A stretch of 64,000 nt of DNA. Origin: Bilabrum cf. latius (Eukaryota). The position numbers and the translations under genes were made by a program. This document shows positions 3,001 to 49,000 of this stretch, piece by piece (position 1 is the first letter of the stretch; each line of letters starts with the position of its first letter). The notes beneath the pieces were generated by a model, which was not told the DNA's origin, did no database searches, and worked only from the letters and a program-made list of their open reading frames with translations. The stretch spans positions 248,001 to 312,000 of the forward strand of contig OZ237752.1 of the NCBI GenBank assembly GCA_965178125.1, read 5' to 3'.

Positions 3001-6000
3001 AAGTCGTCAGCAGCTCCGAAGCGGCTGCCGCATCAAGGCCCCCCGTGGCATCTTGCCCGCCTACCCGCAGCCGCATGTCCACCAGCTGTTGGCGTGTACC
3101 AGCCAGCTCCATGGCCAGCCCACCGGTGCGCCAGTCCTGCACCGAGCATCGCACGCGGACCAACATGTCCACCGATGGATCCCCCAGGGCCGGAGACGTG
3201 CCCTGAATGGCCACCTCTTTGCAGCTGGTGTTCCATCCCGGGCCCTCCAGCAGCACTACCCCGAGGCCGTCCGAGCTCAATGCTTCCCACTGCGTCAGGC
3301 TCCAGCCGGCGTGCTTCACGGACAGCTCCAGCCGCACGTCTTGCTCCTCAGTGTAGGCGACCGCCCGCGGGTAGCTTGCATTGATACTGCCACCCATAAC
3401 GGCAACCGACTGGATCCGCGGCGCGGCATACCCCACCGTCGGTGCCCCTGTCTCGAGGTTCTCGCCGTTCTGGGCTGAAACCACCCGCACCGCGTGGCCA
3501 ACGCCCACACCAGGGGCCAGCAGGCAGCCAATGCGCACCCCAAGCTCGCGCATCTCGACATTGGAACACGCAAATGGTCCCACGGTGACTGATACAATGT
3601 CCTGCGGGGACTAGCCCAGCCCCTCACCGTGTACATCAATCCAGCCTCCCTCCCCGGGAACGACCGCCGGCGTCACCGAGGTAACTTGCACAGGCGGCTG
3701 GAAGGGGAAGGCAGTCAGGTCCACGGCCTCTCGACTCCCTATGACCACCCTCACACTGTAGTCGCCAGGTGTCCACGGCGGAGACAGGCCGCTGCATCGA
3801 ATGGCCGGTCGTTGATCACCCTCACGCTCGGGCACTCCCGACCCGACACCAGCACGCGGGCTGACGTGCCGATGCCCCCTACTCGCGGGATCCCAAAGTG
3901 GCGGCCCGTGACGATCACCTCGTACGACGAGTTCAGCACGTTGTAGACGGTTTGTGGCGACGTGACCACTTGGTCCATCTCTGGGGCGGTAAATCGCAGC
4001 ACACCAACCGCGCTCACGTAGTCGCGGCCCCATACGGTCCGCACCCGCACCACGCCCGCCCCGCCCTCGCTGGCCGACAATGTGCAACGGATCACGAAGT
4101 CGGACTCGACCGTCACGTTGGTGCATGGCGAGCCGTCCACATCTACGGACTCGATGTAGCGCCCCTCGCCCGCCCCCAGCTGCACCCCCAGCAGCTGCAC
4201 GCTCTCCCCACCGCTGGGACTCACCAGTGATGGACTGGCCCCCAGCACGGTGGGGTCCTCCACGACTAGCAGCTGGCTCGCCACGGTAGTCTTGGGAGCA
4301 GTGGGGGCTGGGGTTGTGGAGGAAGACCAGCCTGCGCCACCGGCGGGCTGCAGCGTTGTGTTTATGGCCTGCTTCCATTCCAATGCAAGGGCAGCGCCTC
4401 GGGTCTCCCCGTCGGTCTCATTCGCGGCGTTCACCAGCAAGCTGCCAACCGATACCATACTCACTGCATCAGACGTCACCAGATGTGCGCGCACCCCGCA
4501 CCGCAGCTCCGTGGCAGACACAACCTCTAGAGGGTCGCATCTCTGGCCACCGAGCAGCACTGCCCCCACAGCCAGCTCCCCTCCACTCGTTGCAAGCCCC
4601 GTGCCTCGAACTATGACATCGTGTCTATACTAAGGATCCAGGTGCGTCTCCAGCATCGTGGTGATGCGCACGGTCGCTGGACTTACGGACTGCACCGTGG
4701 GATCCGGCACCGAGACCCAGGCAGCCCGCATGGCGGCCGCTTCTGAAGGGGCAGCGGCCGTCTCATCCTCCACCGCGATTCGAGCTGTCTCCAGCCAGTC
4801 CAGCCCCGGAAGCGACGCCGTCATCGCGAACGGACCCCCCGATCCGTCGGAGCCCAACTTGCACTGAAGGGTCGTGGATGCGGCACTACCCACAGCTGCC
4901 AACCCAGAGCGCCCGGCGGCATCGCACCCAAAGGGGCCCACACGAGCGCGTGCAATCTGCCGACTGCTAGTCACAGATGCATTCGCCAGGCTTGTCCATG
5001 GATACAAGTCGTCGGAGTCTTCCATCAGCAGAGTACCAGCCCCTTCCAGAGCCGCATCCCAGCCCCCGCCTGCACCCCAGCCGTCGCCCACGGGAGCAGC
5101 AGCTAGCACATCCCCCGCCCCCACCTAAGGCCCCCAGCCACCCGACCGCAGCAGCCTCAGGGGACCCAATATACCCACAGCCAAGCACGGCAAGGCGCTG
5201 ACACTGGCATTGGCGGTACCTAGTGCAGTTTGCATATCCCACCTCGCCGCCAGCTGGATCCTCCTTTCGCACGGATCCTATCCTGAGCTCCTTTCCTCTG
5301 TCTGGACCAGAGCGGCGCCCTCCTGCCCGTCATCCGTTGACCACCGCCCATCTGAATACCGAATCACGACCGCGGCCAGTCCAGGCAGAAGCGCCCGCGC
5401 TGGATTGCACTGCACGATGGTGGTGCCCCTGCCGGCGTGCAGGCTGGCGGTGGCGCAAGGCACACCGCCCACCCAGACGTGGGCTGCTTCCTGTGCCCTG
5501 CCCAGATTCGATGGTCGAGGCAAATACACGGGTCGCCGAAGCACCACAGTAATCGCATCGTTGGCACGGCCTGCATGCACCGCGCTGCATCTGGCTGCGG
5601 GACCCACCCAGGCGATGTCCTCGTGAGGCAGCCCCCCTTGGCCAGCTCCCGCCGCCTGGCCCCCGAGCAGTCCCTCCGTCAGCAAGCAGCCTGCCTGCGC
5701 CAAGTGTCGCATGATGGCATCTCCGCCCCACGTGAGATTGGCCCCGGCAATCGCAGCGTCTGTGTCAGGAGCGATCCCGAGAGCTGCGGCGCTGGTGGGG
5801 TCGAGAGGTGGCCAGCCGCCACCACCTGAGCTCGCAACCAGGGTGGCATTGAGGGCAGCACACATGCCGGCAGTGCCTCCGCAGTCCAGCGCACGCGCGC
5901 GTTGCTGGTCCATCAGTCGCATCCAGGGTGGTGTGGAGCTCAGATTGGCCGTGGACGCCTCCATGCGCACCAGACTGCGCCCACTACAGCCAGGGGCAGC

Positions 6001-9000
6001 GGCCAGCAGGTGCACCTGCTGCGTGGCCAGGTCGCTCTGCATACCGACCGTAGTCTCTAGCGCCGTGCCCAGGCGGCACGAGGGCCCCACGCCAGCGGGC
6101 GGAGGCGACCCAGGCTCTTGCCCGTGCAGTGAATCGGCTGCGTGCAACCGCTCCACGATGGCGGATGCATTCCCCATCGGACCCAGCCGTGAGTGCAGGT
6201 CCACTTGTACCCTCGCAACTGCCCCCGCTGAGTCATTGTACCCTGGTGCCCCGGCGTAGAAGACCACGGTTCCGTCATCTCCGAAGCCGAGCAGCTCCAC
6301 AGAGGCTCCAAAGGCCGAGTCCTCAAACAGAAGGGGCCAGCGGCCGTCCAGTCGCAGCGGCATCAGCGCTGGAGACACGAGATGGTGCCCTGCCACTGTG
6401 AATGAGAGCCTGTCCGGCGCTCCTGTGTCCCCTATCACGGCCAGGTGCATCATCACCACGGCACCGAAGCGGCCCCCGCCGGATGACCCGTCAGCCCAGT
6501 CCGGCGCTCCCACCAGCAGCGACACCTCGCCCGCTGCCTCCCCAGGGGACACATCCGGCTCCTGTCCCTCCAGCCGCAGAGGCCCCAGGAACTCGATCGC
6601 CGCCCCGAAGCTGTCGCCCGTACTCCCAGTCGGAGATGCCAAAGTGGCAAGCACCCGCCCCGACCACGCCTGGCCCTCTCTGCTCAGCGACAGTAGCCTC
6701 ACCTCGTCCTCTAGAGGAGCGCCCGCAGCCACCACGTGGTCGTGCAGCCACGTGCCGCCCAGGAGCGCTCGACCCATGCAGGCAACCGCTGCCCCTGTGG
6801 ATGACGGGCCCTCGTGCACTGTGTTGTTGCGGAGCAGTTGCAGCGGCGGCTTGGATCCGCTCCCAGGGCTAGATGCCGCGACCGTGGCCACTCCCACGCG
6901 CCCGGAGAATGCATCGCCCACCAGCAGCGCCAGACTGCCGTCGCCCTGCCTCGAGTCTCCAAGGGAGCACACCGCGCTCCCCTGCAGCAGGACTGCATCT
7001 GGGGAGGTGCCAGGCTCGGATAGGGTCGGCGTGCTAGATCCGTACCCGACACCCATCCTTACGCGATATCCTCCTCGAGAGAGCCACGAGTGGTGCACCT
7101 GGCTTGCGTGTTGCATGCCAGCCCCGCCAGATGCCATCGAGTCACATGATGCTTCCAGCACGATTACAGGAGCATCGCTGGCACCAAAAGCTCCAATCGA
7201 GGACTCCAGAGAGCACGCACCACCCTGCAGTCTGGCTGCCGAGCCTGCTACGGCATGCGCTGGGATGGGTGGCAACGACTGTGAGATCTAGGGGTATTCG
7301 GTTTGGGCCGCATGGCTACTGTTCATAAGAAGAACCCACACCGCACCTTTACCAGAGCCCCCATCATCATCTAGATAGGCCCCCACGGCCATGTCCACCA
7401 CACCGTCTCCGTCCAGGTCCCCCAGCGATACCGCAGAACTGCCGAACAGGTCACTATTATCCAGCTGCCCTGTGAAGCCGCCCTGGGTGTCCGATATCTT
7501 CTGATGCGACTTCACGGTTCCATTAGAATACAAAACGAGTACCCACATAGCCCCTTTACCAGAGCCCCCATCATCATCTAGATAGGCCCCCACAGCCATG
7601 TCCACCACCCCGTCTCCGTCCATGTCCCCCAGCGATGCCACGGAGCTGCCGAAGTAGTCACCGTTATCCAGATATTCCATGAAGCCGCCCTGGGTGTCCG
7701 ATATCTTCTGATGCGACTTCACCATGCCGTTGGATCGAAGGAACAGCACCCATATAGCCCCTCTATCACCGCCCCCATCATCATCATTCATTGCTCCCAC
7801 AGCCATGTCTATCACCTCGTCTCCGTCCAGGTCCCCCAGCGATACCGCAGAACTGCCGAAGTAGTCAAAATTATCCAGCTACCCCGTGAAGCCGCCCTGT
7901 GTGTCTGATATCTTCTGATGCGACTTCACCATGCCGTTGGATCGAAGGAACAGCACCCATATAGCCCCTCTATCACCGCCCCCATCATCATCTAGATAGG
8001 CCCCCACGGCAATGTCCCCCGCCCCGTCTCCGTCCATGTCCCCCAGCGATGCCACAGAAAAGCTGAAGCCGTCACCATCATCCAGCTACCCCGTGAAGCC
8101 GCCCTGGGTGTCTGATATCTTCTGGTGCGACTTCACCATGCCGTTGGATCGAAGGAACAGCACCCACATAGCCCCTGTATTGGAGCCCCCATCGGCATCT
8201 CCATAGGCCCCCACGGCCATGTCCACCACACCGTCTCCGTCCAGGTCCCCCAGCGATGCCGCAGAACTGCCGAAGAGGTCATCATCATCCAGCTACCCCG
8301 TGAAGCCGCCCTGGGTGTCTGATATCTTCTGATGCGACTTCACCATGCCGTTGGATCGAAGGAACAGCACCCATACAGCCCCTCTGAACGTGCCCCCATC
8401 GTTATCTAACCTCGCTCCCACGGCCATGTCCACCACCCCGTCTCCGTCCAGGTCCCCCAGCGATGCCGCAGAGATGCCGAAGAGGTCACTATCATCCAGC
8501 TACCCCGTGAAGCCGCCCTGGGTGTCCGATATCTTCTGATGTCGTAGCTCCGTCGCGGCCGCCGGCATCCCTCCAGCCACTTTCGGATACACGAGTACGC
8601 GATGTGGCCCCGAGCCCCGCCTCCGGATCAGGGCAGACTCCTGCTCTGACCCAACCCGCAGCCGATCCACCCCACGTAGGCCGCAGCCCACGCCACCATC
8701 AGGGAGGCCCATGATGTCCGTGCAGTTGGCCCCGAGGGCCCGCGCACCTGCTGCGCATGCCTCGCCAGCCTCCCCGCACCCCGTGCCGTTGAACCCGAAC
8801 ACCAGATCTGCGCCCGCCATGGACAGCAGGTCAACGCCCGTCAGCTCCTCTCCGCCCCCGTCGTCGCCCTTGATGCTCTGGGGCTCGATCCGCACAGTGG
8901 CCGAGGTGCTGCCGCCGATCGCCAGGGTGCAGTTGGACCGCGGCAGCACCCCGCACGAGGTTGATCGATACGGAGGCTGCCGCACAATGTGAGGGCCCTC

Positions 9001-11105
9001 CCCTGGACACCCGTAGTAGTTGGCGCTGATGGGCCACAGCCGCACCAGCAGGTCAATGCGCCGAGTGCCATCCAGCCCAGCCGCACGCAGAGAGATCGAC
9101 TGCCCCATCCCCCGAGAGGTGGCCTACTCCCCGGCCAGCAAAGTACTGCCAGCCAACAGCATGAAGTGCAGTTCTGCAGGCGGCTCTGAGGCAGTAACAA
9201 TCCAGTTGAAGCGCAGGGTGGCCACCACGTCGCCCTGCAGGTACCCCAGGGGGAGCAACGCGCGGGCGGAGGCACACCCCGACTGCTCCAGGTGCACGGA
9301 ACGGTAGCCGCCAGACTCAGGCAACACCGCCTCTGCGTCGTCGTACAGGGTCCCATCAACCACGTGTGCCTCCGTCGCAAGGGACCACCCCGCGGGCACG
9401 CTGGCAGGATCCACCACGTACTCGTCCTTAGATAGCCCGACGTACCACTATGGCGACGGTGAGGGTCGAATATTACGCGGGAACAGCACCCACATAGCCC
9501 CTCTATTAAAGCCCCCATCATCATCGCGATAAGCCCCCACGGCCATGTCTACCACCCCGTCTCCATCCAGGTCCCCCAGCGATGTCGCTGAATAGCCAAA
9601 GTTGTCATGATTACCCAACCGCCCCGTGAAGCCGCCCTGAGAGTCTGATATCTTCTGATGCGACTTCACCGTGCCGTTGGATCGAAGGAACAGCACCCAC
9701 ATAGCCCCTCTATCAAAGCCCCCATCATCATCTTCATGTGCCCCAACGGCCATGTCCACCGCCCCGTCTCCGTCCAGGTCCCCCAGCGATGCCACAGAAA
9801 TGCCAAAGTTGTCATAATTATCCAGCTACCCCGTGAAGCCGCCCTGGGTGTCTGATATCTTCTGGTGCGACTTTACCATGCCGTTGGATCGAAGGAACAG
9901 CACCCATACAGCCCCTCTCTAAAAGCCCCCATCACGATCGCTATCAGCCCCCACGGCTATGTCCACCACACCGTCTCCGTCCAGGTCCCCCAGCGATGCC
10001 GCAGAATAGCCGAAGCCGTTGCTATTGTCCAGCTACCCCGTGAAGCCGCCCTGGGTGTCTGATATCTTCTGATGCGCCTTCAGCGTGCCGTTCGATCGAA
10101 GGAACAGCACCCACATAGCCCCTCTCTAAGAGCCCCCATCATCATCTCCAGTCGCCCCAACGGCCATGTCCACCACCCCGTCTCCGTCCATGTCCCCCAG
10201 CGATGCCGCAGAACTGCCGAAGTAGCCTTCACGATCCAGCTACCCCGTGAAGCCACCCTGGGTGTCCGATATCTTCTGGTGCGACTTTACCATGCCGTTC
10301 GATCGAAGGAACAGCACCCACATAGCCCCTGTACGAGAGCCCCCATCATCATCGTTATCAGCCCCCACGGCCATGTCCACCACCCCGTCTCCGTCCAGGT
10401 CCCCCAGCGATGCTGCAGAACTGCCGAAGAGGTCATCATCATCCAGCTACCCCGTGAAGCCACCCTGGGTGTCTGATATCTTCTGGTGCGACTTCACCAT
10501 GCCATTGGATCGAAGGAACAGCACCCATACAGCCCTTGTACGAGAGCCCCCATCATCACCATTAGATTTATAGGCACCCACGGCCATGTCCACCACCCCA
10601 TCTCCGTCCAGGTCCCCCAGCGATGCCGCAGAATAGCCGAAGAGGTCACCATCATCCAGCTACCCCGTGAAGCCGCCCTGGGTGTCCGATATCTTCCTAG
10701 TCTCCTGAAGTATATCAGACGCTTCCGACAGCTCACGCTTTCCGAGCAGCTAGTACTCCGTCTGCTGATCGGCTAACTACCGACTGCGGGAAGGAGCTGG
10801 GTGACTTTGCGCACGAAAGGTATGAGCATCAATGATATAAAATGCTACAGTATAACGTTAATTGGGTTCCTGTCAGAAATAAACTGTCGCAATCCTAATC
10901 TTTTGGACCATGATATAAATTCTCACCCAATTGCGTGATCTCCCTCCGTTCGCTGGTAGTTCACAGGCAAACTCGCCTCGCACCGCGCAAGAACAAGCAC
11001 GTACAGCACCAATCGCGCGACTTGTCGTGTAGCGTGTCTAACTGGTCGTGGTAGGCTTGGGGGCTTGCCCAGTATGATACTGGAGGTTGCTTGATCACGC
11101 TGCAT
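1..11105 (-). CDS. Giant surface membrane protein (3' partial): signal peptide, 12 FG-GAP repeats, degenerate FG-GAP region, several IPT/TIG-like domains, Cys-rich segment and multi-pass TM region; needs TAG=Gln
   Basis: Probable ATG at 11105 followed by hydrophobic LVLYVLVLARCEA. A phase-compatible GT-AG intron lies at 10784-10926. ORF-track pieces 9448, 9124, 8500, 7288, 5278, 4630 and 3751 share one frame, and 3611, 2795, 2258, 1751 and 1181 share a second frame; the joins within each frame are TAG. There is one apparent 1-nt frameshift at ~3805. The C-terminal part reads CEEGYTGLLCARCQPGY..ECRQC, then TM helices and KILFSHIQVVAIAASFKLKWP, and runs off the window. Confidence 0.85.
7325..8540 (-). 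repeat. Coding tandem array of six 207-nt FG-GAP repeats (block B)
   Basis: Equivalent codons at 7465, 7672, 7879, 8086, 8293 and 8500 (period 207). Unit reads [63 protein letters not shown]. Confidence 0.95.
9480..10700 (-). repeat. Coding tandem array of six ~207-nt FG-GAP repeats (block A)
   Basis: Equivalent codons at 9619, 9826, 10033, 10240, 10447 and 10660 (last interval 213 nt). Same unit as block B. Confidence 0.95.
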
Positions 11106-19245: not shown

Positions 19246-21109
19246 TCAGTCAGTCCCCCTTGTGCTCTCGTCCAGAGCCGGGAAGGTCTTGTAGATCTCT
19301 GCCATGAGACGAATGGACAGGTCCACGTCCTGCACGCCGCACATCTCCCGGATAGAATGCATGGCCAGCTGGGGCACACCCACGTCCACGGTCCGGACGC
19401 CCAGCCTGGTGGACATGATCGGCCCGATGGTGGACCCGCACCCTATGTTCTGCTTGATCACGAACTCCTGCACGGGGACCCCGCAAGCCTCTGCGGCCCG
19501 CCGCACCATGGTGGCAGTGACCGCCGTGGTGGAATACCTCTCGTTGCAGTTGGTCTTGATCACCAGGCCCTCCTGCATCTTGGGCCGGTGGTTGCAGTCG
19601 TGCTTGTCCCCGTAATTGGGGTGCGCCGCGTGAGCCATGTCCGCGCTCACGAGGATGGACTTGCGCATGGCCACGGGCCATGACCTGGGCTTGTCCTCCC
19701 CGTGGATGCGACGCATCACCTCCCCGAGGAACGTGGACCCGGCCCCGGGCACCGACGCGCTGCCCACCTCCTCGTTGTCGAAGAGCCCGACCACGCGGAC
19801 GTTCTTCTCTTCCTTCAGCCCACCCCCGGACTCGATGCTCTCCGTGAGCGCCCGCACGCACGCGAAGCTCATCAGGAGGTTGTCCAGCCGAGCCGCGAAG
19901 ATGAACTCCCGGCGGGTGCCGCCCACGGCCGCGTCCTGCGTGTCAAACATGCACAGCTCAAAGTCCCTGATCATGGCCGGTGTCACTGCGGGGGCCCCCG
20001 CTGGCCTGCCCTCGGTGATGCTCTCTGCCAGCAGGCGGAGGAGCTCCGGGTGGTGCCGGCTGCCCGCCTTGTAGGCGGAGGATTTCTCCTCCTCGTCCTT
20101 TTTCTCGGTGCCCTCGTCGTCCGCCTTGCCTGCTCCTGTCGCGGCGCCGCCGGCTGCGGAACCGTCCACCTTCCCGTCGGTGCCCAGAGACTCCTTCAGG
20201 TGGGTCGCCATGACTGCCCACAGGTGCGCCTCCTTGTCCACCCCGAACTTGTCGTTGGTCCCTCGATCCAGGTGAATGGCCAAGGAGGGGATCCTCACGA
20301 TAGGCCTCTTCACGTTGGCCAGAGCCGAGGTGACGGCCCCCGTCTCGGGGTCGTCGAAGAGCACGCGGCCGGCCACGCTCAGGTCGCGGTCGAACCAAGT
20401 GCGCCAGATGCCGCCGCCGTACCACTGCGTACATTCGGTCGAACCAATTGGATGAGAGACGGACAGGGGTGCGGGCTACTAAACACGGCGAATGGCGATA
20501 GCAGGCGGCGCTGCGGAGCGGCAGCCAGCGGCTTGCCTGCACTGTGGTACCCAGGCCAGCCGCGCAAGGCTTGCCAACTGCAAACTCAAAACAAGGGCAA
20601 CCACTCACCTGGGTCCCAATGCAGTCGAAGCCAGACTTCGTTGCGGTAGAGATGGGCTTCAGCTTCAAGCAAGGCGAATCCGTGTGTGCAGCCGAGATGG
20701 TGAACCCATTCCCAGGCTCATACCGCTCTCCAATAGCAAATGCAACCAGTGCGCTCTAATTCCTGGTGACGTAGTACTTGCCTCCGGGCTTCAGGTCGGT
20801 CCACACCTCTCGCTCGCTCAGACGTACATATCCATCGGCCTCCAGCTGCTTGCACACCTCGTCCACGGCATGGAACGGCGATGGAGACTTGTTCACAAAG
20901 TCAAGGAAACTGTCAGCTATCTTAAGCTGGTCATCGGACGGCTTGCCGGGCTTGGCCAGCGGCTCACTCGGCGATCCAGCAACTGCGGCCATTGTTCGCG
21001 CGGGGTACAGATATGACGGTGACGCTGCCTTTGGCAGGTGAGATCGGGACAATCGAGGGAACGACCGGGCGAGCGGCTTGCGAGAAGAGCGAAGGAGGCT
21101 CCGAAGCAT
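19246..21109 (-). CDS. DNPEP: Aspartyl aminopeptidase (peptidase M18), 2 exons, one in-frame TAG
   Basis: Motifs SPSPFHAV, YYVTRN*SALVAF, AHTDSPCL, YGGGIWRTWFDRDL, RLDNL, FDNEEVGS, SADMAHAAHPNY, CGSTIGP and AMHSIRE. Intron at 20425-20608, TGA at 19246. In-frame ATGs at 21109 and 20992. Confidence 0.96.
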
Positions 21110-21426: not shown

Positions 21427-24400
21427 TCACACCCTCTGCTTCCTGCGGCCGCTCCCCCGCCCCCTCCTCCTCACCTTGCGCCTGCCAGCCTCCTCGTCCA
21501 CAGCACCGATCCCGCCGCCGATCAGGGCAGCAGACGCGCTCGCGTCCCCGCTGTAGGCGCCGCTCTTGCCACCGCCCTTGCCCCGCCCCGTGTGCGCCGC
21601 ACCCCCGGCGCCCCCCCCTGCCAGCTCGACCCCAAGGCCCACCCCCCCCCTCTGCTTCGACTTAAAGGAGGCCTAAGAGCCGCCACCCCCCGACCTGCTG
21701 GATGCCTTGCCCCCGGCCCCCCCGCTTCCGCCCGAGGCACCGTCGTCGCCCTCCTCCACCAGCGGAAGGCCCAGCGCGTCAGCACCGAGATCTGTCTCGA
21801 GGAGACCCTGCACCGCCTGCGGGGAAAGTTCCGCAAGAAGGCGCCGCGCAGGGTCCTCCCCGGGCCCGCTCCGCGACCCCAGCAGCGAAGCGGCCGCCAG
21901 CCGCACCCCGCCGAGCCCAGAGGCGCCCGCCACCGCCTGCACGGTACCCAGGTCGGCAGCGGGACCCCAGACCGCCACAGCGCGAAGCACACCGGCGCGC
22001 ACCGCCGTCTGCGGCGTGCTGGGCAGCAGGTGCAGCCCGCTGGCGAGGGATGCCCCCAGCCCTGGTGACACGGCGGAGGAGCCAGCGCCACCCGCCGCCC
22101 CGAGACCTGCCTCGTCGAGGCCTTGCTGTTCCCCGTTCCCCTGAGGGTGGCCAGACACGGCCCGCTGCAGCAGCCCAGACCCTCCCGGGCCCCCCGCACC
22201 GGCCCCGCCGAAGCCGTCCATGTCGGGGGAGCGGCGCCGCGCGCTGGCCTGCGGATCCAGGAGGGACGACAGGGCGTCAAAGGCGCTGCGGGACGAGCCC
22301 TGTGACGAGTGCTCCACGCCCCCGCGACCCCTCCCGCTCGCGGTCGAGGACGACGACGACGAGGAGCCTGGGCCCTGCTGCGTCCCCGGCCAGGTGCCGT
22401 GTGCGGTGGTGGGCACGCCCTCCAGAGCGAGAGGTCGCCCGCCCGCTGCGCCGTTGCTGTTCCCCCCCACCCCCGCACCGCCGCTCCCGTTCGCACCCTC
22501 CGACGAGTCGCCCGATCCAGCACCCGATCCCGATCCCGCCGCGACCCCACCCAGCCGCGCGGCCTCCTGCAAGCGCACCTCCACAGCCGCCACCCGCATC
22601 TCCCGCGCCTCCACCGCCGCATCCATCCAGCAGGCCCCGGGGCCAGAGAGGCGCGAGGGGTCGCAGTGGGGGTCGCACAGAGCCCGCATGCTGCCGGGCC
22701 GCACCGGCGGCGCCTGCGCCAAGCCGTCCTCTCTGCGCGGCGCCTGCGGAACCACGGCCGCCAGCGCCGGCGGTGTCACCAGACGGGCGGGGGCCATGGG
22801 CGCCGCGCCCCTGCAAGCCCGCAGGAGGTGCCTTCCGGGGTCCTCGAGATCCGAGGCCCACAGAAGCGGGGAGCCAGCCGACCCGCCAGCGGCGCCGCGC
22901 GCTGCGGAACCGGTCGCCCCTGGTGCCTTGACGGTGGCGTCTCGCTCGAGGAGGGACAGCCCCGGCACAGCCACAGCAGATGCTCCCAGCGACATGGCCG
23001 GCAGCGGGGGGCTCTGCCCCTGTGCCCCGGCCGCGGGGACGAGCCCGGGAGATCGACCCGAGGGGCCGGCAGACGAGGCACCGCCCGCCCGCAGGATGGT
23101 GGGCGTGGCTCCGCCCGCGGAACCCCAGGCGCCGCGCGGCTGCGAGCCGGGGTGCGTCCCCGAGTGTCGGTCGTCAAGCCCCGCGGCGCGCGCGATCGGG
23201 CCGTCGAGCACGCCCTGCAAAGTGAAACGCCCGCCGGGCAGCTGCTCGAGGGAACCGTCCACCACGCCGACCGGACCAGCAGCGCCGCTGCTCGATGGTG
23301 ACCCGCCCGACGAGCGGATGGCGCCTGGGTGTGACGATGACGAAGCTCCGGCTGAAGCTCCCGCCGTACCGGGAGGCAGCGTGAGGGTGCCGCGCGACTG
23401 CTGGTTCCGCTGCAGGCCGGCGGAGGCCGACGGGGGCGGGGGCGACTGCAGCGCCTGGCCGGGCTTCGCAGAGCCCTGGCACACCCTGCGGTGTTCATAA
23501 AAGTGTGACGAGTGGGATCAATGGAATGGAGGATCGCGAGAGCGAGGGATTTTGCGGGAACGGCAGAAGCGTGCCAAGCGCGGCAGCGCAAAGGAGAACA
23601 GGGAATGACGGGGCCCATGCACTCGTCACACCGCTCACTTTAGGATGCGTCCCTCCAGCACCATGTTGTTCATCCCGCGGATGGCCGCCTTGGCCTCTTC
23701 GTCCGTCGAGAACTGCAGGTAGGCGCTGGCGCAGCCGCCACCCCCTGCCGCTGCTCCCGCTGCCCTCCCCCGGGCGGGCGCGGACCTGGACAGCGCAATC
23801 TTCTGGATGCGGCCGTAGCGCCCAAAGAGGTGCTTAGAGCGCAGGAGGGAGTCCTTCGCGGCCACGAGGGGAAGCCCGATCACGTACACCAGGTTGTGCT
23901 GAATCTGCACCCGGGAGTGGGCAGCAGCAGCACCACCACCAGCGCCTGTCGAGGCTCCCGCAGCTGCCGCGGCTGTCGAGCCGGGCCCTGTTGCCCCACC
24001 CCCGCCGGTGGACAGGGCGCGATCCCTGCCTGACGAGTGTCCCCTGGCGTGGTGGTGGCTGCCCCCTCCCGCCTGCGACGACTGGGAGCCACCCTGCGCC
24101 GATGCCTGGGCGGCCGCGCGCTGCTCCTCCCTTCGCCGGGCCTTGGCGCGCCGCTCCCTGTCCTTGCGGAACTTTTGTGCCCTGCGCATATTCAATGGGG
24201 GTGAATGGGTCGGTGGCGCGGCGATGTGGGCTTGGGTCCGTGCGGGCAGCAAAAGGGGCTCAGATCGGTGCAGCAGCGTGCTCCCACTGGCCGACTGATG
24301 CTTCTGGTTGGCACGGCAACTGGTGCTCCTGCGTGCAACTCGCAAGTTTTGGCGTGGCCACTCATTCGACCGTTAGGTCGTCAAACTCCCTATTATTCGC

Positions 24401-24775
24401 TCACTCTTCGTCCGTGTACGGGATCACCTTCCATGGTTGCTCGGGGTAGGGCTGCCTGCACTGCGGGCAAAGCCCGTTCTGCTCCTCCTTAATCCTACGC
24501 CAGCAGAACGTGCAAATCTGCGACAAGAATAGTGGGGTGATCGATGTCGTTTTTCGGTGTCATTCTTCGGTGATAGGCCCACTCTTGAGTGCTTGAACCG
24601 GAGTTCAACCATGTGTTCGACCGTTTTCCCCAAGCGGCACGAGCCTACGAGCGTCGCCACACTAAGCAACCCTACTAACCTAGTACTGGCACTGGCATGG
24701 AAAGAATCGCTTGTCTGATAGCTCGAGATCTTCGCAGCACAATGGACATATATCTTCGCCCTCTGTATCTACCAT
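21427..24775 (-). CDS. NOT4: CCR4-NOT subunit NOT4-like RING E3 ligase with RRM, 4 exons (TAG=Gln)
   Basis: C4C4 RING CPLCCEDLELSDKRFFPCQCQY*/ICTFCWRRIKEEQNGLCPQCRQPY and RRM VQIQHNLVYVIGL..FGRYGRIQKI..SAYLQF. Introns at 24518-24679, 24182-24404 and 23486-23638. TAG at 21673 is read through to TGA at 21427. Confidence 0.92.
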
Positions 24776-31534: not shown

Positions 31535-32242
31535 CCTGATTAACCATGAGATTGAAGTATTTGATGTCACGAGGGATCGATGTGATCTTCTGCGGGGTGA
31601 TTGATGCACAGCTGATGCTGCACAGATAGAATTGAGTTTTATTTTAAAATAAAATTGTTTTTATGGTCGTGCTCTACCTCTCAACGAGTCGAGCATATAT
31701 TCAAAGCAAATTTTCATAGACTGTACAATTTGTTGCGAAGCTAGCTGTGCAGTTCCTGTGTCGTTGTTCAATGTTCTCGTCTATCCATCGGATCGGATTG
31801 AGCCAAGAAGTAGCGAACAGATAACGTATTTAATCGAACACATCACGCCGTCGCAAAGAAGTTGTACACGTCACCCCACCTTCGACCTCAATATTTCTGG
31901 TCGGATTGCACCGGTCAGCCTCAGATCCCTTTTAACAATGTAAGGAATATGAATCCGTAGCCTGCTTTTCCTGCTGCAATCGTGCATCCATGACGGGCAC
32001 TTCCCTTTCTAGCAACGTCTGCACGGTGCTCCCCTTTCATTGATAGAGGACGTCTCCAGCTCATCCATTGCCGATAATGGAAGCGTATGTGGCTTAATGC
32101 AGAACAATTTATAGAACTACAACTTATTACGGGATAATTGTCCTTTTAATCGTCCTTGCAGAAGCAGATTTCAGCCGCATCAGGTGCGTTGTCAGCGCCA
32201 CCTGTCGGCACACGCGCAGCTCCCTGTCCCGATTACTCCATT

Positions 32243-35200
32243 ATGAGCGGGTCAAGTGGCGAAAGAATACGCACAACCAAACAGAAGTATATGGAACATA
32301 ATACTAGTTGCAGTTTCGGAGGTATATCTGCGTCTGGGCTGGAGTTGCCAACACAACCACAGCAAGCAGGGCTCTCGGTTTCGAATGGCTTGTCGGCAAG
32401 CTCCTCCCGAGCTGGATCAGCTTCATCTAGTAACTCTACACTTTCTGTAAATGTAACAGCTACTCCTGCTACGGGGTTGAGCCATACAATCGATTGTAGA
32501 CTTGGAACAAGCAGCCGGAGCGAGTCGACCACAACCGTTGACCATGCTGCCAATTACCGAGGTCTGAAGCAACTTTTGGGTGAAAACCGCGGCAGAGAAG
32601 TAGGAAGCATACGTACTGGTCTATCAGTAGGATCGCATACGTCGCTTGCGCTCCCAGGTGCAGGGGTAAAGCACCTGGGCGGTCCATACATGAAAGCATC
32701 AGCACCAGCCCTGGGAAGAAGCGGGCCAGCCTCACAGACGGTGGTAACGCAACGAAAGCCCGATTCTCCCTCAAGATAGAACAGTACCACCAGTCAGCCT
32801 GTTCTTCCGACAGTTCCTGGCCTACCATCTGCTTCGTCGGCGTCAGATGCCCGAGCACGAGGAGAGCCGAGCGGCAAAGGAAGCGCACAAATGCCCATGG
32901 AGGTCGCATTGCACGACAGAGTATCATCTCATGGTCTTGCAATGGGCACGAGTGCGACGGCGAGCAGCAGCAGCAATCGCATCACCGCCGGGGACCCGCC
33001 CCCCGCCAAGTAGCTCTCGGAAGCCTATGCCCAGATACGAATGCTGCAGGACCACGTGGTTTCGCTTGCTTCTCAGCTGCAAAAAGCGTGCGATATGGTA
33101 GCCTACGCCGGGAGGAGAAGCAGCAGCGGCAACACAGCCACCTAGGGCAAGAGCTCCAGCGAAGAGATGGCCGGGCCTCTCCCCGCCGCTAAGCCGAAAG
33201 CCCATGCCCATGCTAGCTCCGGCAACAGGAACCATGGACACTCGTCACACCGCAGTCCGCCTCGACCGGACTCCAATAAAGCTTCACCATCGGGCTCCAG
33301 CTCCCGCGGCAGTGATCTTGGTAAGCACCCAAGGGTCAACCTCCCATCGGCAGGGGCGGCCAGCGGGGGCTCCTTCACGCACCGGCCGAGCAGTGGAGGT
33401 GCCACCAACAGCAGCATGCATGGAGGCTCCACAGAGACGGGAAAAGACTCTAGGGAGGGTTCCTCGTCGCTCAGCGGGGGCTCTTAGGGCGGCAAGCAGC
33501 GGGGCCCGAGGTCCGGCTCCGGTGCAGGGTCAGGTGCAGGGTCGGCGAGGGCTTCAACCACCCAGGACACACCCAGTGAGGGTGGTCATAGCCGGTCGGA
33601 TGGATCGGATCCGCCGGGGTACGCCAAGAGACACGCAGCAAAAGAGAGGAAAGAGTCCGCCTTGGGCAGCGGAAGCGGCCCAGTGGCAGTGGCAGAGGCC
33701 GGTGCATCGTCCTCGTCAGCCGGGAGGGCAGGCAGCTTAGACAGCGACAAGTCAACCGAGGCTAGAAAAGGCTCGGGCGATGACACGGGAAAAGGAGGGA
33801 GTGCCACTGCCGACAATGATGGGAGCCATGGGCTAGCGGCCGAAGCCAAGACTGATGCACCGGCCCAGGGCAGGTCCAAGGGCACTGTGGTGCAGTCGGG
33901 CGGCCACCAGCACTCGCACCATCACCATCACCACCACCATCTCCACCACCACCCGAGGAGCAGCAAGAGCTCAGACTCAGACTCAGTCAGGCTCGTGAGG
34001 ACCCGGTTCCTCGCAGACGCGCGCACAGCACTCGAGAGGGTGCAGCTGCTGCTGCCAGGGAGCGTGCAGGCCGGGCCAGACAGCAGCACTCTAGTCGCAG
34101 GCAACGAAAACGTAGGAGGGTGGACCAGAGCCGAGCACTTGCGAAGGCAATAGCGGCAGAAAGAGGGCAGGGCACGGCACCGAGCGAGACTTGACGGCTC
34201 CACTGGGTCTGAGACTGACGACGAGCGTGCCTCCAATGCCTCCAACGATACCACTTCAGAAGATGCTGAAGAGGCTGGAAAGTCCCGACATGGCGGGCAA
34301 GTGCCGATGACTGACGGGTCTGCGACATCTTCTTTCTTGCAGACATCAAAGTCGGGCGGAACCCATGCCATGGACTCAGCTCTGCTTGAGAGGGCGCTGC
34401 AGACCGGCAAGCGAAGCAGGGCGGACGGATACCACAGCAGCACCTCCGTGCAGCCGAACAGCTCCTCGTCCTCCGAAGATAGCAAGACGGGAGGCTCGGG
34501 TGGAAGCGGTGAATCCCGTGAGGACAAGTCTGCCGGAAAGAGAGCAGCCGTTCTACCGGCCAAGCGCAAGCGCTCAGACAGGCAGCGCGCTGACGGTGAA
34601 CAATCAGGCAGCCAAACGGCGGCTATTCAGCCTACCGACGAGCCGCAGCTTACGAGCACCAGAGCCGTGGGTGCGAGCGTATAGCCCCGCACCAAGCGGG
34701 CTCGAGTGGACGCCGATTCCCTCAGGCAGCACAACGAGGCCCAGGCGCAGCTGGAACGGCAGACGGCTGCCTAGCGGGGAGGCCAGGTCTAGAGCTTCGG
34801 GGCGGCACCGCGCGACGCCCACATGCCGCCGCACATGTTCCAGCAGCAGCCTTTGGCAACACTGCAGCCGCCGCCGCAGCAGCAGTACAGCAGGCCCTCG
34901 GGGACAGGCCAGCCGGGACTGCTCTCCACTCTAGCTCCCTCTTCCCAGGCCCAGCTGCCGATGGACGCCCAATCCGGGACCGCGGCGGCATTGGGTACAC
35001 ACGATGGATCCATGCGCTCCAGCGCAAGCGCACCGATGGCGGTGCCTGTGCCTTCACTCTAGGGCTTGCAACCAGCCACGAATGCGAGCGCCGGCGGGGC
35101 GGCACAAGATTCGTCCGCTGCATCCCTTGACGCCCGCACAGCCGCGCTGTCCGAGATCGAGATAGACCTGCTGCAAAGCCTGACGGCAATGAGGAACGGA

Positions 35201-37294
35201 GTCACCGATGATGACGAGAGCACAGCCTCCGCCGCGGGCTCGGCCACCAGCGGGATCAGGTCGACCAGCCTGCAGTCCAGGGGCCAATCGAAGGGCGGCA
35301 GGGCGCGCGGGAGGGGCGGGTCTTCGAAGAGGCAAAATTCGAGGCGAGCAAGCAATGCAGCTGCGCAGCGCTCAGCTGTAGCCTCCAAGGCCAGTGCCCA
35401 GCACGACGAGGACGGTGCCACCGCAGGAGGAGTAAACGAGAGCATGGGGCTCGACCGCCCCATCGTGAATGGCACCAACCTGCGGCCCGAGGAAATCACC
35501 CCAGAGATCCAAGAGAAACTCAACAGGATCGGCCCGCCACCCCCATCCGTCCTATCTCGAGCAAGCGAGGAGGCAGTCAGGACGCGGGGAAAGCTGGACT
35601 ATACCGAGAGGGCCCTCGTAAGCGATTTCGTGAGGCGAGTCGAGGCGCGCGTGATCCGCGTGGCCAGAGGCGAGCTTGCAAGGGAGCTGAGGGCGTACGT
35701 GAACCCCTCTCGCTCCAAGATGTTCTTCGAGAAGCTCATCTCCAGGAGGAAGCTCAACCAGAGGCTGGGGGGGCTTCTCATGGGCCGCAAGCTCAAGGTA
35801 GGCTCCCTCGGGCGAGAGATCCTGGACAGGATCGGGGCACAGAGCGAGGGCAAGCAGCAGAAGGGCCGCGCTCGCAGCAAGGTGACTTCCGTGTCGAGTG
35901 CGGGCGATGTACACACGGTGAGCTAGCTGCATCTGCAGCAGCAAAACCAGCAGATCCAGCTCCCGGGAGTGGGGCAAGGGGGCCCTACTGGGTGGGGGCA
36001 GTTGCAATCAGGCGCAAGCGGACTGCTCCCTTCCTCTAGCACTGGCAGTGCATCATCCTCCGCTGGTCTGCGCCCCGGCGAAACTTCCACGGAGCAGGAC
36101 CACCGTGAGGCCATTGACGCGGCCAGTGAGGTGCTAATGGAGTACATCCGAGCCAACGAGCCGGTGGAGCCGACCTTGGTGGCGGCGGCCGTTGGTAGCA
36201 GGCTAGCGGCGAAGGGCTTGCCTGCCGATGTAGCGGCGCGCGCAGCGCAGGGCGTGGCAAGAGCGGTGGTGCAGCGGCTCGGGATGAAGGGCGCTGCTGT
36301 GCCGATGGGCATGGGTCTCGGTGCCGGTGCCGGTGCCTGGAGTGTGCCTGCTCCGCCGGTACCAGTGGGAGGGCATATGCTCTCGTGGCATAGTACAGGA
36401 CCGTACGGCCAAGGGCCGCATGCTCCTGTGCCTGTGGGGGCTCCTCCGATCCTGCACGGTGGTGGATAGGCAGCTGGTCGCGCGGGTATGCTGCACGGTG
36501 GTGGTTCATTTGCCCCACAGCAGGCGCCTATCGCGCAGTTGCCTGAGTACACAGCCCTCTACAGCTAGTAGCAGCAGCAGGAGCCGTCATGGGCGCCAGG
36601 CCAAGCACGACCGAGGCTATCCAGCTCCGTCAGCGCTAAGAACCCCTCATTGCACCAGCTGCGGGGCAGCGTCTCTGAGACCGTCTCTGTGTCATCGCAG
36701 GCGATGCGGGGCGTGGGGGTCAGTACGTCTCTCGTTGCTTCCGGTGCCATCCCGATACCATCGCAAGGCAAGCATGTTCCATTGCTCGCCTCTGCACCTA
36801 TGGGCACTGCACCCCGTGGGATTCGAGGGCCAGTAGCACCAGCGCATGGAAGCAGCAGTAGCAGCAGCAACACCAGCGGAAGTGCTGTCCCCATAGCACC
36901 GTACGGCGCGCTCCTCGGTGGAAGGCACCTAGGACAGGGCAGCGTCCGCAAGACTGCGAGTCATGCTGTCAGCATGGGCGCACTGGCACTTCCGGTGCAA
37001 CCGAGCATGGGCGCCGCGGCAGCAGCCAGTGCGCTGGCCACTGTGCCAGTTGGCGCCGCAGATGCGGACTCGATGACTACGAAGAGCGCGTCGGCGTCAG
37101 TGTGGTCCTCGGCGTCGCAGTCGATGCTCATGCAGGGTGGCAGCGCGGGGTAGCCAAGACAGGGGTAGGCTGCGGTGCCCCTTGCTTCCGTTCTAGGTAC
37201 CGTTGGGCAGGTTCCAGGTGCTGGGAGGAAGGGTCCAGCAGCATTTGTTGAAGCTCCTGTGCTAGCGGCCCAGCAGCCGTCCGCCCATAATTGA
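32243..37294 (+). CDS. Hypothetical Ser/Gly/Ala-rich protein, 1683 aa, apparently single exon with about 15 in-frame TAG
   Basis: Eight ORF-track pieces lie in one frame, separated only by TAG. No TAA or TGA seen until TGA at 37292. Contains a poly-His tract and a possible folded helical region at ~35480-35850. Confidence 0.8.
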
Positions 37295-43700: not shown

Positions 43701-44521
43701 CGTGCACGCCATCACCATTGATGTCGCCCACAGACGCCACGGAGGCCCCGAACAGACAGCCGTCGTAGAAGATGCCGGCCGTGAAGCTGCCCTGAGTGTC
43801 GGAGATCTTCTGCTGTCCCTTCACCGTGCCGTTGGAGTGCTGCAGCAGCACCCACACGGCCCCGCGATCCGGCCCGCCGTCGTCATCGTTGGGTGCCCCT
43901 ACCGCCAGGTCCGACACGTTGTCCCCGTCCACGTCTGCCAGAGACGCAATGGAAGACCCGAACCAGTCCTCGTTCGACAGGCTGCCCGTGAATCCGCCCT
44001 CGGTGCTGCTGATCTTCTGGTGGCGGTGCACGGTGCCATTCTCGTTGTGGAACAGGATCCACACGGCGCCGCGATTCGACCCGCCGTCATCGTCTCGCAT
44101 GGCACCCACCGCCAGCTCGGGAATGCCGTCCCCGTCCATATCTGGCACAGTCGCCAGTGCAGCCCCGAAGTTGTCCGAGTTGTCCAGCTCGCCCGTGAAG
44201 TTGCCATGGGTGTCGGAGATCTTCGCATACGACTTCACCGTATCGTCCACGGTCTGGTAGAGGATCCACACTGCGCCCCGGTCGGTGCCACCATCATCGT
44301 CACGCATGGCACCCACCGCGATGTCGGGCACGCTGTCGTCGTCCAGGAGGCCCAGGGATGCTGTGGCGATGCCGAAGGTATCACTGTTGTCTAGGTCGCC
44401 ATCAAAATCGCCGCGCAGAGACGATACTTTCTAGTAGTGCACCACGCCGAGGCTGGTTGTAATGGTTGCATCCCCAAATCTTGCGAAGGCAGCTACTGCT
44501 CCCAGAATACCGATTGATGAG
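37748..44521 (-). CDS. Type I membrane adhesin-like protein: two FG-GAP propeller blocks, mucin-like stalk, about 10 EGF-like repeats, SEA-like regions, TM and tail; 5' end uncertain
   Basis: Phase-0 GT-AG introns at 41439-41700 and 38555-38930 join ORFs 41656, 40572, 38607 and 37748. TAGs at 44431, 40572 and 40407 are read through. TM segment [25 protein letters not shown] at 37748. The start codon lies upstream of 44521 and was not resolved. Confidence 0.85.
40908..41380 (-). repeat. Coding minisatellites: 18-nt units (SPSVSA/V) and 30-nt units (ATPSTS[V/M]AA[A/T]S) forming a mucin-like stalk
   Basis: About 11 x 18 nt at 41170-41380 and about 8 x 30 nt at 40908-41169, directly visible. Confidence 0.9.
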
Positions 44522-46023
44522 CTGCGTTGGAATGATCCTTGGAAATTGAAGGTTTGATGGATGATAGTGATAAGAAAATAGGGCGTAATAGATGCAGTCG
44601 GACGCAGAGATGGTGGAACGGCTGGCCACGCTCGACCAGTCCATGGATGCATGCTACAAGCCGTGAATGAAGCCACGACAACGAACGTTGAGCACGGGCG
44701 AAGCAACACACGCTTTAATATACTGCGTGCTACGGCTGTCTCACCCTACAGAAGGCACAATCATACTTTTCTGCTTTTGAAGTGGCCGGCTGGTATGCTC
44801 GCCGCCTGGGGCGCGGGTTGGAATTTTCCGCTGGATGCTTGGGTTCCGGTTTGGTATCATGGGCCCAATGCGCAACACCAAATGAATAAATAGTATACAG
44901 CCACTTCTTAATAACTCCAAATTCTGGTTGATTGCCGATACTCCTAGCTGTACCGTGCCCGCCAGTGGTTTTAATCTTGCCCCGCCAGTGCCAGTGGTCG
45001 CAACTCTCTCGCTGGTCGCTAGCGCTATGGTAGAAAATAACAATGCATCGAAAGCTCTCAATAAAAACATTCAAGCTATTATTGTGGGGCGCAGAATAGA
45101 AATGGAGGCAAAGGCACATATTACTTGTTCTAGCAGTTTGCCAATTGCGCCGCGGCTTGCTTCTTCCTACCCTGGCTATAACTGATATAGCTTAGCCATC
45201 CGCCGCATCCTCTGCAACTTGTTGAACAAGCATGCTACACTTGCTACGATCTCTGAATTCCTTGCGGGCGCTGCTCTGGTTTGCGTACTTGTGGGCGTCC
45301 TCGACGGCATCAGAGCCATCATTATGACGTCTCTCGAGAATTGACGACACGTAATTTCTGCCGAAGACAAAGCAAAAAATATCTCAGAATAGTAGTGCGC
45401 TTTACTTTTGACTCTGCAGTATTTCTGAGTTCGTAGCTGCACCACAAATATCAACTGCTTCGTGGACTTGTGATTGATTTTGTCTAAATCTCCATGAGCA
45501 AGAGACTTAGCTCATATCACATCGGTCCATGCCCCACCAATCTCGACCGTAGCAAATGGCCCCCAGCGCGCGACGCCCTCCCACTGGCACCCCAGCACGA
45601 GGGAATCGCCCGTGGCCCACCGGCAGTCAGCCTCGTCTCATCCATTGCCCCACTGGCCCATGAGGCTGGCAGCAGGCCTGGTAAGCGGTCGTTCGGATTC
45701 GACGGGTCGGCCTCCTCGGTGGCATTCTCTGTCCCGTGCACCAGCGGCACTGGCAAAGGGCGATGAGGGCCAGGGCTGGTGCATCTGCGCCCGTAGGTAG
45801 GCACACCGCTGCAGGGGGGCTTTTCCCACTCGCATGCTTTGCAACCCCGACTTATCTGCTCGCATTCTAGCTCGTTCTTCTGTATTGGGCAGGGGAGGCC
45901 CTTGAGGGGCCGGGTCCGCCATGATAACGTGCGATTTCAGCCCGTCACCTGAGGTCTAGGCGATTCACCCAGTGCGCGCACATCTGCACCCAGATCCGGT
46001 GACGTTGCCGCAGCACCGGACTT

Positions 46024-49000
46024 ATGTCACGAGGACAATCACTAGGACGCAATGATGTGGTAACATCGCTGGAAGATCTTGGCCCAGTCTCGTCTTCGGA
46101 CAATGAAATGCTAGTGACCGTTGCTCCAGAATGCCTGCCACAGGGCGAGGCATGGTTGGAGAAGAAAGGCTCTGGAGATGGAATTTTTTCATCGAGATCA
46201 TGGTAGCCTCGGTATGCAAGACTCATACCTCCATTCTTGGAGCTGTCACGATCTCCAGATCACCGAGCATCCAAAATAATTGATTTGAGGACAGCCCAAG
46301 CTCGCCCCCTCCAGCATCACGCTAGGCATCACGCGTTTGAAATTATCACAACTATGAGGTCGTACTAGCTTGATGCCGGGGATGGCGACTCATTTGAACA
46401 GTGGTTGCGAGTGCTTGGCTTGTGTTGCCGAGCTCTGCAGGGAGACTTGACTGTTTCGGACGCTCGCAAGCTCGTGTTCGATGAAGATCAACCTGCCAAA
46501 CAAAAGGACGAAGCTACTTCTGGTGATCTGCCGGGTGCAGATGATGACATTGGGGCTTGGGACCCGGCCACTGGGCAGTGGGTGCAACCAGCACAGCAAC
46601 CCTTCGCTGGAGGCAGTCCTGAGCGAGACCCGGTGGACGGTACCATCATGGAAAGCGAAGAGGGAAGCGAAATCGAGTCGCAATCTTCTCGTCCCTCAGT
46701 CAATGACAGCAACGGAGTCGCAGACTCTGACGATGATCCCGATGGTGCCGTTTTGCAACAAACGAGCAATTCAAGCGAATAGTTGGACGGGCCAAGGCTG
46801 GCTACAGGTTCCAAGATTCAAAATGAAGGCACTGATCGATCACGTAGTAGAAGCACCGATGCTAGCGATGAGCCGCAGGGGCAGCACAGTGGCATGGGAA
46901 AAGGGCCCACCTTTACGGAGGGGCAATGGACTGGCGAATATCCCATTCGACCTGGTGTCAGTCCACGAGTACCACCTGACATGATAGACGATTCATCCGC
47001 ACCTGACCCTTGGGGGGATGGTCCAGAGAAGCGGGTGCTGCAAAGGGAGGGTATGCAGGCCCTAGCGGCAGCTGGTTTGGGTGCTGCCGCGGCCTCAGTC
47101 GGTGTCGGTGAAATGTAGGCGGGTACGGTATCAGTCGGGGCGGGCTCGAGCGAGCTCACCCGGGCGAATTCCCTGATTTCTAACAAGCAGGATCCGGCAG
47201 TGAAGCAGGGGCAACGCCAAGACCCAGACATGGGTGAGGCTCAGGCTGAGGCTGGCGAAGGCGAAGACACTAGGAGGACACCTGAGCGGCCTGCAGTGGA
47301 ACCAGCCTCAACGGCTGCTGAGCCCACCTCGAGCTCAAGACTAGGCAGATCTAGATCGGCAACAGCGGGGGGTTCCCCAGCTGTCAGTGCTTCCCCCCAT
47401 TCACACGCGGCTCAAGCCGCCTCAACGGCCCAAACCACGATTACAGCCCCAGTCCCCGCTCCTTCAGGCAGAGCTCTCGTAGACGTGGAAGAGATCTCCA
47501 GCGCCGAATCTGACGCGGTGCTAGAGTCGGATAGGGGCAGCAGCAACAGTTTCCCCAGCGATGCCAGAGCGCAGGCAACGGCTGGGCCAACTGTTGGTCG
47601 GGGCACTGGTTCCGCGACTCGGAGTGGCATGCAGGGGGGAGGGCTTGTTTCCGCGCGTGCAGAATCGCAGGCTTCTATAGCAGAGAATTCAGAGAACGCA
47701 CCTCCCTCAGGGTCATCTTCGCCTCTCCCGTGGCCGGCTGGGTCATCTGACGACCACTCGAAGGAATCAGCTGGCTAGCTGCCGGAGCCAGAGAACCGCC
47801 AGAGTCTGGTGGCTCAGAGCAGCACCGCGACTCAAAGTCCCAGCGTAGCACCTGAAAGCGCGTCCGATACGAAGCAGAATCCGGCGGCCGTGATTCTACC
47901 TAGCGCACACGTGGAAGCATACAAGTAGAGCGAGGGCAATAACGACGTCGAGGAGATTGCAGCTGCAGCCGCCCCCTCACTCGGTACTTGGACAGAATTA
48001 AACGGCGATGGGCAGCCCACGACTAGGACGTTTTCTCCTTCGTTACAACTCAAGAGCGAGCTGCGCGAGGCGTCTCCTGCAGATAAGCCCATGGAGGCAC
48101 GGCCTGCTGGCGACGGCACTTAGGCTCCATCCTCAACCGAGCCTGTGCCCGGGCCGCAGGTGGATGGCCCCGTGCCAAGTGTCACTGCCACCGGTCAGCC
48201 CAAGGGCAGGCGCATTCGTAGGGGTCGAGGCAGCAAAATACCGGCTGTTCCAGCAGCTGTCGCAACACAACCCGATGACGTCAGAGCAAAGGCATATCCA
48301 AGCGAGCAAGCCGCGGCAGCCGCCAATCAAAGCGCAGGCATACCCGAGTCGCCCAGCGCGATAGAAGTGGACCAGAGAGCTCAACAGCTGGTGGCTGCGT
48401 CCATGCGTGCACTCCATGGCTAGACCACCCGCAGCCTGGACGCCTCTGAAACTGCCGCACCCGCCGACCATGCCGATGCATCAGCCGGAGCAGACAGTGG
48501 TGGCAAGAGCAGCACGGGCGATGGATCGGACACGCAGCCTCTTTCGGATGATTCAACCAAACCGGTGGACATTCTGCCCGACACGCCGCGATAGGTTGTG
48601 GCAGATGGCCTCCAGTAGCAGTAGCGCCCAGTGGATCTAAGAAGTAATCCGGATCGGACCAGTGGCAGCGCAGAGCCACTCAACACAGAGGCGAGCGACC
48701 CCAGCGCGGATAAACTGCAGCCGGAAGGTAGCACTCAGCCAAAGGCAGCTGCCGCAGATGATAGTCACTGCGATCCAGCACCGGAGGCTCGTGGTGCACC
48801 CTTCTCACCCCTGTAGATGTTGCAATTCGGGAAGGCGGCAAAGCCTTAGCAACATGTAGTCCGTGCTTCCACGAGCGCCGGTAGTCATGGGAACGCAAGC
48901 TGCCTGCCTGGCAGCACCGACGCTACTGGCACGGGGACCGAATCACAGCGAGGTGCTGGCAGCTAGGCGATGGAGGAGGCGCTACCATCGAAGGCCAGTT

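Follow-up and report, generated by a model that had tools for sequence, protein, structure and literature searches.

An in-frame UAG at the conserved glutamine position of a NOT4-like RING finger: probable use of UAG as a glutamine codon in GC-rich eukaryotic DNA

INTRODUCTION

What becomes of a TAG triplet that lies in frame between the two conserved halves of a zinc-binding domain? The question is raised by a NOT4-like gene on the minus strand of a stretch of DNA of 64,000 nt (the window, by which we mean the whole stretch that was analysed). A sequence-only reading of this DNA had placed a TAG at 24680-24682, next to an intron at 24518-24679, in the protein context C-Q-Y-TAG-I-C-T-F-C-W, and had interpreted it as evidence that UAG encodes glutamine. 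The coordinates, the strand and the reading were all confirmed, and the interpretation is supported both by the NOT4 alignment column and by 83 further in-frame TAGs in other coding segments. We consider it highly probable that this DNA is nuclear and comes from a GC-rich eukaryote that has spliceosomal introns and uses UAG as an ordinary sense codon, glutamine being its most probable meaning.

Changes of the nuclear genetic code are rare. Reassignment of UAA and UAG together to glutamine is listed for many ciliates, for the ulvophycean green algae, for Hexamita and Streblomastix, and for Amoeboaphelidium protococcarum, an aphelid (PMC11687900, PMC5304391, PMC2984419). Reassignment of UAG alone to glutamine is reported to be known from few lineages only (PMC11687900), and those named are the fornicate Iotanema spirale, Protocruzia tuzeti and two phyllopharyngean ciliate lineages (PMC11687900, PMC5304391). 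A UAG codon at a conserved glutamine position has to be weighed against the standard code, against a code in which both UAA and UAG are sense codons, and against a sense codon for some other residue.

RESULTS AND DISCUSSION

Structure of the NOT4-like gene and position of the TAG

The plus strand reads CTA at 24680-24682, which is TAG on the minus strand, where the end of exon 1 and the donor read TGC CAG TAC TAG/GTTAGT and the acceptor and the start of exon 2 read TCGCAG/ATT TGC ACG TTC TGC TGG. The coding part of exon 1 (24680..24775, with the ATG at 24775..24773) encodes the first half of a C4C4 RING, and the TAG is codon 32, the last of the exon; in RNA contigs exon 1 reaches upstream to about 24880. 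Intron 1 (24518..24679, 162 nt, GT..AG) is followed by exon 2 (24405..24517), which encodes the second half of the RING (ICTFCW...CPQC), intron 2 (24182..24404, 223 nt, GT..AG), exon 3 (23639..24181), which encodes a basic linker and a CNOT4-type RRM, intron 3 (23486..23638, 153 nt, GT..AG) and exon 4 (21427..23485), which encodes a low-complexity C-terminal region; all lie on the minus strand. A TGA at 21429..21427 ends the frame, giving a spliced CDS of 2811 nt. The tail encoded at 21427-23485 comprises 685 codons and is rich in Gly, Ala and Ser. A second in-frame TAG of the gene (21673..21675, minus strand, codon 855) lies in this unconserved low-complexity tail.

That the TAG occupies the glutamine of the 'YQIC' motif of NOT4, as the sequence-only reading had it, was verified in two ways. 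When both RING exons were scanned separately against Pfam with the TAG read as X, zf-RING_4 (PF14570) was matched by residues 10-31 of exon 1 at positions 1-22 (E=1.6e-6) and by residues 1-24 of exon 2 at positions 24-47 (E=6.5e-9), both scores being above the 27-bit cutoff. Position 23 is skipped between the two exons and must accordingly be that of the TAG; it corresponds to the Q of 'YQIC'. NOT4 chains were also the best PDB matches for both exons: the end of exon 1 maps to residues 35, 24 and 28, and the start of exon 2 to residues 37, 26 and 30, of the solved NOT4 RINGs 1e4u_A, 1ur6_B and 5aie_A, respectively. The gap is exactly one residue in 3/3 chains, leaving room for the TAG as one residue, and the residue of 5aie_A at this place is Q29.

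The further claim that all eight Cys ligands and the RRM are intact holds as well. The Cys residues, read from the translations, are spaced C-x2-C-x13-C-x-C-x4-C-x2-C-x11-C-x2-C, and the x4 spacer is kept only if the TAG is translated as one residue. The best solved match of exon 3 was the human CNOT4 RRM (2cpi_A, E=6.5e-11, query residues 82-180), the next RRM reaching only E=0.019, and Pfam RRM_1 was matched at E=1.9e-5. Since the RING and the RRM are both of the CNOT4 type, the gene is assigned by these two domains to the NOT4/CNOT4 (Mot2) orthologues. It shares with CNOT4/Not4 (Mot2), the RING E3 ligase of the CCR4-NOT complex, the PF14570 C4C4 RING with its eight Cys and their spacing as well as the RRM, but differs in its low-complexity tail, in the UAG codon at the conserved Gln and in the region after the RRM, where a C3H1 zinc finger is a feature of animal and yeast Not4, whereas in the window gene neither a C3H1 zinc finger nor any other Pfam family was matched there at E<=0.01 (exon 4 ORF, 696 aa).

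The TAG is retained in spliced transcripts

Contigs assembled from public runs, X1, X2 and X3 from two studies (P1 and P2) with two organism labels, as well as X8, were compared with the window. They are contigs rather than raw reads, the RNA label of the runs is a guess ('RNA?') and X2 is marked 'probably DNA'; we take the X1-X3 contigs to be cDNA-derived because they contain four canonical GT..AG joints of intron size that are absent from X8, of which a contig of 8855 nt spans the whole of this region unspliced. Contigs of X1, X2 and X3 each join 24517 to 24680, skipping exactly 162 nt (CT..AC on the plus strand), so that the predicted intron 24518-24679 is removed as proposed in all three runs and both studies. 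The other joints within the NOT4-like gene are 24180 to 24404 (223 nt) and 23484 to 23638 (153 nt), and one falls in the neighbouring aspartyl aminopeptidase gene (20424 to 20609, 184 nt). All contig pieces have 0 letters that differ from the window.

The cut can be set with an ambiguity of 2 nt, and in every case the joined sequence reads CAG TAC TAG ATT TGC. The spliced contigs contain the TAG with 0 differences, and the mRNA therefore carries UAG in frame. A different donor that would remove the TAG, which might have explained the triplet away, occurs in none of the X1-X3 contigs; the predicted donor is used and the TAG is neither spliced out nor, at contig level, edited. Nor is the gene a silent copy: it is transcribed, and each of its other introns is likewise removed. 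One low-depth X1 contig of 151 nt lies within the intron, as might be expected if pre-mRNA or DNA were present in trace amounts.

The residue expected at the NOT4 site

Homologues were sought with exon 2 alone, which excludes the site itself and so avoids circularity, among 1.84 billion representative proteins; the best 150 were re-aligned and the residue just before the match ('IC') was read. It was Q in 140, K in seven and A in one, two sequences being cut at the N-terminus, so that Q accounts for 140 of 148. In seven of the eight rows with another residue the first half of the RING is missing upstream, and these look like mis-modelled or truncated genes; the remaining one is a real K row (...CACSYKIC...) with an intact RING. 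A regular expression for the full motif matched 110 of the 150 rows, with Q in 109 and K in one. Those cluster members that are named are CCR4-NOT subunit 4 proteins from C. elegans and spiders. A homologue search with the RRM exon collected 3661 candidates, of which none was scored.

A TAG in the neighbouring aspartyl aminopeptidase gene

The window also holds an aspartyl aminopeptidase gene (DNPEP, family M18; 19246..20992, minus strand), with PDB matches down to 1.5e-90. It consists of exon 1 (20609..20992), an intron of 184 nt (20425..20608) that is spliced in RNA contigs, and exon 2 (19246..20424), and it ends with TGA. Its one in-frame TAG (20756..20758, minus strand; codon 79, in TRN-TAG-SALVAF) is kept in the spliced contigs. 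In an alignment of 120 homologues the corresponding column contains Q 43, M 16, H 15, K 9, G 8, Y 7, E 6, A 5, N 2, L 2, S 1, R 1 and 5 gaps, Q being the plurality with 43 of 115 non-gap residues. In P0002, the nearest relative of full length (82% identity), Q stands at the TAG and the context is otherwise identical. The PDB homologues have S, K and D there, a set that is uninformative taken alone. A search for DNPEP relatives in JGI metagenome contigs gave 583 pattern matches, 0 of which were confirmed. Separately, a 375-aa protein encoded on a public contig of 1941 nt (P0001) is 97% identical to DNPEP exon 2, which suggests a second allele, a subgenome or a very close strain of the same organism.

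DNPEP also served for placing the organism. A maximum-likelihood tree of 37 sequences placed the window protein together with P0002 as sister, with 100/98 support, to a group containing P0003-P0006; the next groups out were P0011 and P0012, then P0020 with P0029, and fungi, plants and animals fell in separate groups. P0003 represents a Cafeteria roenbergensis/burkhardae cluster, P0029 is Platysulcus tardus, and both are stramenopiles. On this single-gene placement the organism is more likely than not a stramenopile related to bicosoecids. The PUF domain encoded in the window had distant matches only (26-30% identity), without lineage signal.

Use of TAG, TAA and TGA across the window

The 14 in-frame coding segments of the window, which comprise 15,995 codons and were delimited as stop-to-stop ORFs that may include some non-coding sequence, contain 84 TAG, 516 CAG, 134 CAA and 0 TAA. 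All 84 in-frame stop triplets are thus TAG, yet TAG makes up 30% of the stop triplets in the window, and the probability of this outcome by chance is about 10^-43. If UAG encodes Gln, it provides 11% of the Gln codons. CAA forms 21% of the CAR codons, and applying the CAA:CAG ratio to TAG gives about 22 expected in-frame TAA. Since none is seen, the code in the window looks like one in which UAG alone is reassigned to Gln (NCBI table 15) and not one in which UAA and UAG both are (table 6).

Each of eight long ORFs examined contains 3-21 TAGs. When TAG is read as sense, the longest ORFs grow from 1593 aa to 2682, 2368, 2150, 2083 and 1714 aa; TAA as a sense codon leaves ORF lengths almost unchanged. 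ORFs also become longer when TGA is read as sense, which is to be expected, TGA being the commonest stop triplet where GC is high, and ORF length is therefore by itself no proof. Every confident gene ends with TGA: this holds for DNPEP, for NOT4, for PUF and for the remaining long ORFs. When TGA alone is taken as the boundary instead of TAA or TGA, ORFs gain 0-190 codons, at their ends only, and it follows that TAA interrupts no genes. The GC content is about 62%, and 52-74% per 2-kb bin. In the 64-kb window 0 tRNA genes and 0 Rfam matches (no rRNA) were found, and eRF1 is not encoded there.

TAG codons in repeat proteins and other long ORFs

Pfam domains identify ORFs with FG-GAP and TIG repeats (3751-10857, 41584-44760, 55953-63998 and 2-4417), with PUF repeats (25283-31534) and with EGF domains (38442-41486), and the long TAG-bearing ORFs are taken to be real genes because such domains flank the TAGs on both sides. 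The most TAG-rich ORF has a PH domain (46003..52455, plus strand; 2150 codons, 21 in-frame TAG, TGA stop), and one of 1714 codons matched no Pfam family (32150..37294, plus strand; 15 in-frame TAG, TGA stop).

The repeats provide internal alignment columns. In an FG-GAP repeat protein, the TAG at 44431..44433 (minus strand) stands in the 'xK[IV]S' column ('HQKIS'), where it occurs once and where 17 of 22 other repeats have Q; BLAST aligned the same TAG to Q at 4/4 paralogous positions. The FG-GAP/TIG protein encoded at 3751..10857 (minus strand; 2368 codons) has 19 in-frame TAGs, nine of which are in the same column of a 207-nt repeat ('GGFTG-TAG-L'). In this column TAG is found in nine of 12 repeats and CAG, CGG or, in one repeat, TAT in the others; the residues are R, Y and Q in those other repeats and E, S and G in a paralogue protein. 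The presence of TAG at one column in nine of 12 units points to one original TAG, multiplied by tandem duplication and retained afterwards; as the repeats are only 86% alike, it was kept through their divergence. The column names no residue. The repeats form two arrays of 207-nt (69-aa) units, at 7334-8541 and 9480-10696, with 5.8 and 5.9 copies and 86% identity. An EGF-like 'C-x-N/Q-G-x-C' column with TAG has N in five cases and Q in two. By paralogue likelihood, S, R and Q at TAG lie within 1 log unit, and L, I, V and F score 15-20 units worse. An analysis of the residues neighbouring TAG codons was dominated by the FG-GAP repeat context.

Few columns are informative, and they differ in strength: that of NOT4 is strong and that of FG-GAP good, DNPEP offers a plurality only, and the other TAG columns are uninformative or point elsewhere. 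Taken together, the TAG columns exclude Leu and favour Gln. The assignment of UAG to Gln depends chiefly on NOT4, on the 'HQKIS' column of the FG-GAP repeats and on the DNPEP of the closest relative.

Alternative explanations

Under the standard code the NOT4 TAG would be a true stop, or the product of a pseudogene lesion, an assembly error, editing, alternative splicing or rare readthrough. All that was found to speak for such an explanation is that the second TAG of the gene, in the tail, could taken alone be a stop. It is opposed by the spliced contigs of three runs, which use the predicted donor and keep the TAG without a difference, by the exons downstream, which are open and conserved through the second half of the RING and the RRM matching 2cpi_A, and by the 83 additional in-frame TAGs, up to 21 per ORF, a number beyond sequencing error or leaky readthrough, and we regard the standard code as very improbable indeed. 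A code of the table 6 type, with UAA and UAG both read as Gln and TAA merely too rare to be seen in 64 kb at about 62% GC, deserves more thought. Two sources give UAR-to-Gln as the most frequent nuclear variant (PMC11687900, PMC5304391), all confident stops in the window are TGA, as table 6 predicts, and TAA is indeed the rarest stop triplet here (369, compared with 842 TAG). Like that code, the code of the window has UAG read as Gln and TGA as a working stop; it differs in showing 0 in-frame TAA in 15,995 codons where, beside 84 TAG, about 22 would be expected, and the gain from TGA-only ORFs is small and always terminal. A table 6 code is for these reasons unlikely.

It could also be that UAG is a sense codon with another meaning, e.g. 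Lys, Glu, Asn, Ser or Tyr. Several TAG columns of the repeat proteins are polar without being specifically Q, the paralogue likelihoods barely separate S, R and Q, N outnumbers Q in the EGF-like column, a Tyr codon (TAT) replaces TAG in one FG-GAP repeat where nine have TAG, and K comes second at the NOT4 site (7/148). However, the same NOT4 column is almost uniformly Q, with an intact RING in only one of the rows that are not Q, the closest DNPEP relative and most of the 'HQKIS' repeats have Q, and the hydrophobic residues L, I, V and F fit far worse, so that a residue other than Gln appears quite improbable. Reading UAG as Gln, with UAA left out of the sense codons, remains the explanation that we prefer.

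A proposed decoding scheme and its lineage context

If UAG means Gln, the near-invariant Gln that lies between zinc ligands four and five of the C4C4 RING would be supplied by codon 32 in the NOT4-like mRNA. Decoding would be carried out by a putative tRNA-Gln with the anticodon CUA, and eRF1 would have lost recognition of UAG. Decoding of UAG is presumably efficient, because genes with 15-21 UAGs would be impossible to express by leaky readthrough.

The code proposed for the window resembles that of the known UAG-only lineages in that UAG stands at conserved Gln positions, TAA is not sense and TGA is available as a stop. It differs from them in its setting: the window is very GC-rich (52-74%) and has ordinary GT..AG introns, and its DNPEP clusters with those of Cafeteria and Platysulcus rather than with ciliate or metamonad sequences. 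The kind of code change is thus already known, and it is the combination of lineage, very high GC, a UAG-only change and TGA as the stop that may be new. In the literature searched, which covered few subscription journals, nuclear stop-codon reassignment in stramenopiles was not found, a weak sign of novelty. We put forward only tentatively, as a possibility that we regard with some doubt, that a GC-rich heterotrophic relative of Cafeteria with UAG-only reassignment to Gln and UGA as almost the sole terminator represents the first stramenopile nuclear stop-codon reassignment.

If this is true, the UAG-only variant would have arisen independently once more, in a bicosoecid-related organism, and GC bias could explain the uncoupling of UAG from UAA. 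The extreme GC content would then allow a test of whether GC pressure drives the capture of UAG while UAA falls from use. There is also a practical side, since gene prediction with the standard code on such a genome would truncate or mis-splice a large share of the genes.

Other features of the window

The part of the window at 10001-16000 has a GC content of 52-57%, compared with 60-74% elsewhere, and coincides with a duplicated segment and with short ORFs in which Pfam matches are few. The duplication involves 11840-12585, 13272-14548 and 15638-16159, where stretches of 222-300 nt share 95-99% identity at spacings of about 1960 and 2360 nt; it lies in the lower-GC part and adjoins ankyrin-repeat ORFs and an exon encoding an acyl-CoA-binding protein. 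At the other end of the window, the TIG-domain ORF at 55953-63998 contains, at about 60000-64000 (plus strand), near-identical blocks of several hundred residues in at least three copies. ORFs on the opposite strand recur there every 891 nt (61226, 62117, 63008), a period that is above the 500-nt limit of the tandem-repeat finder.
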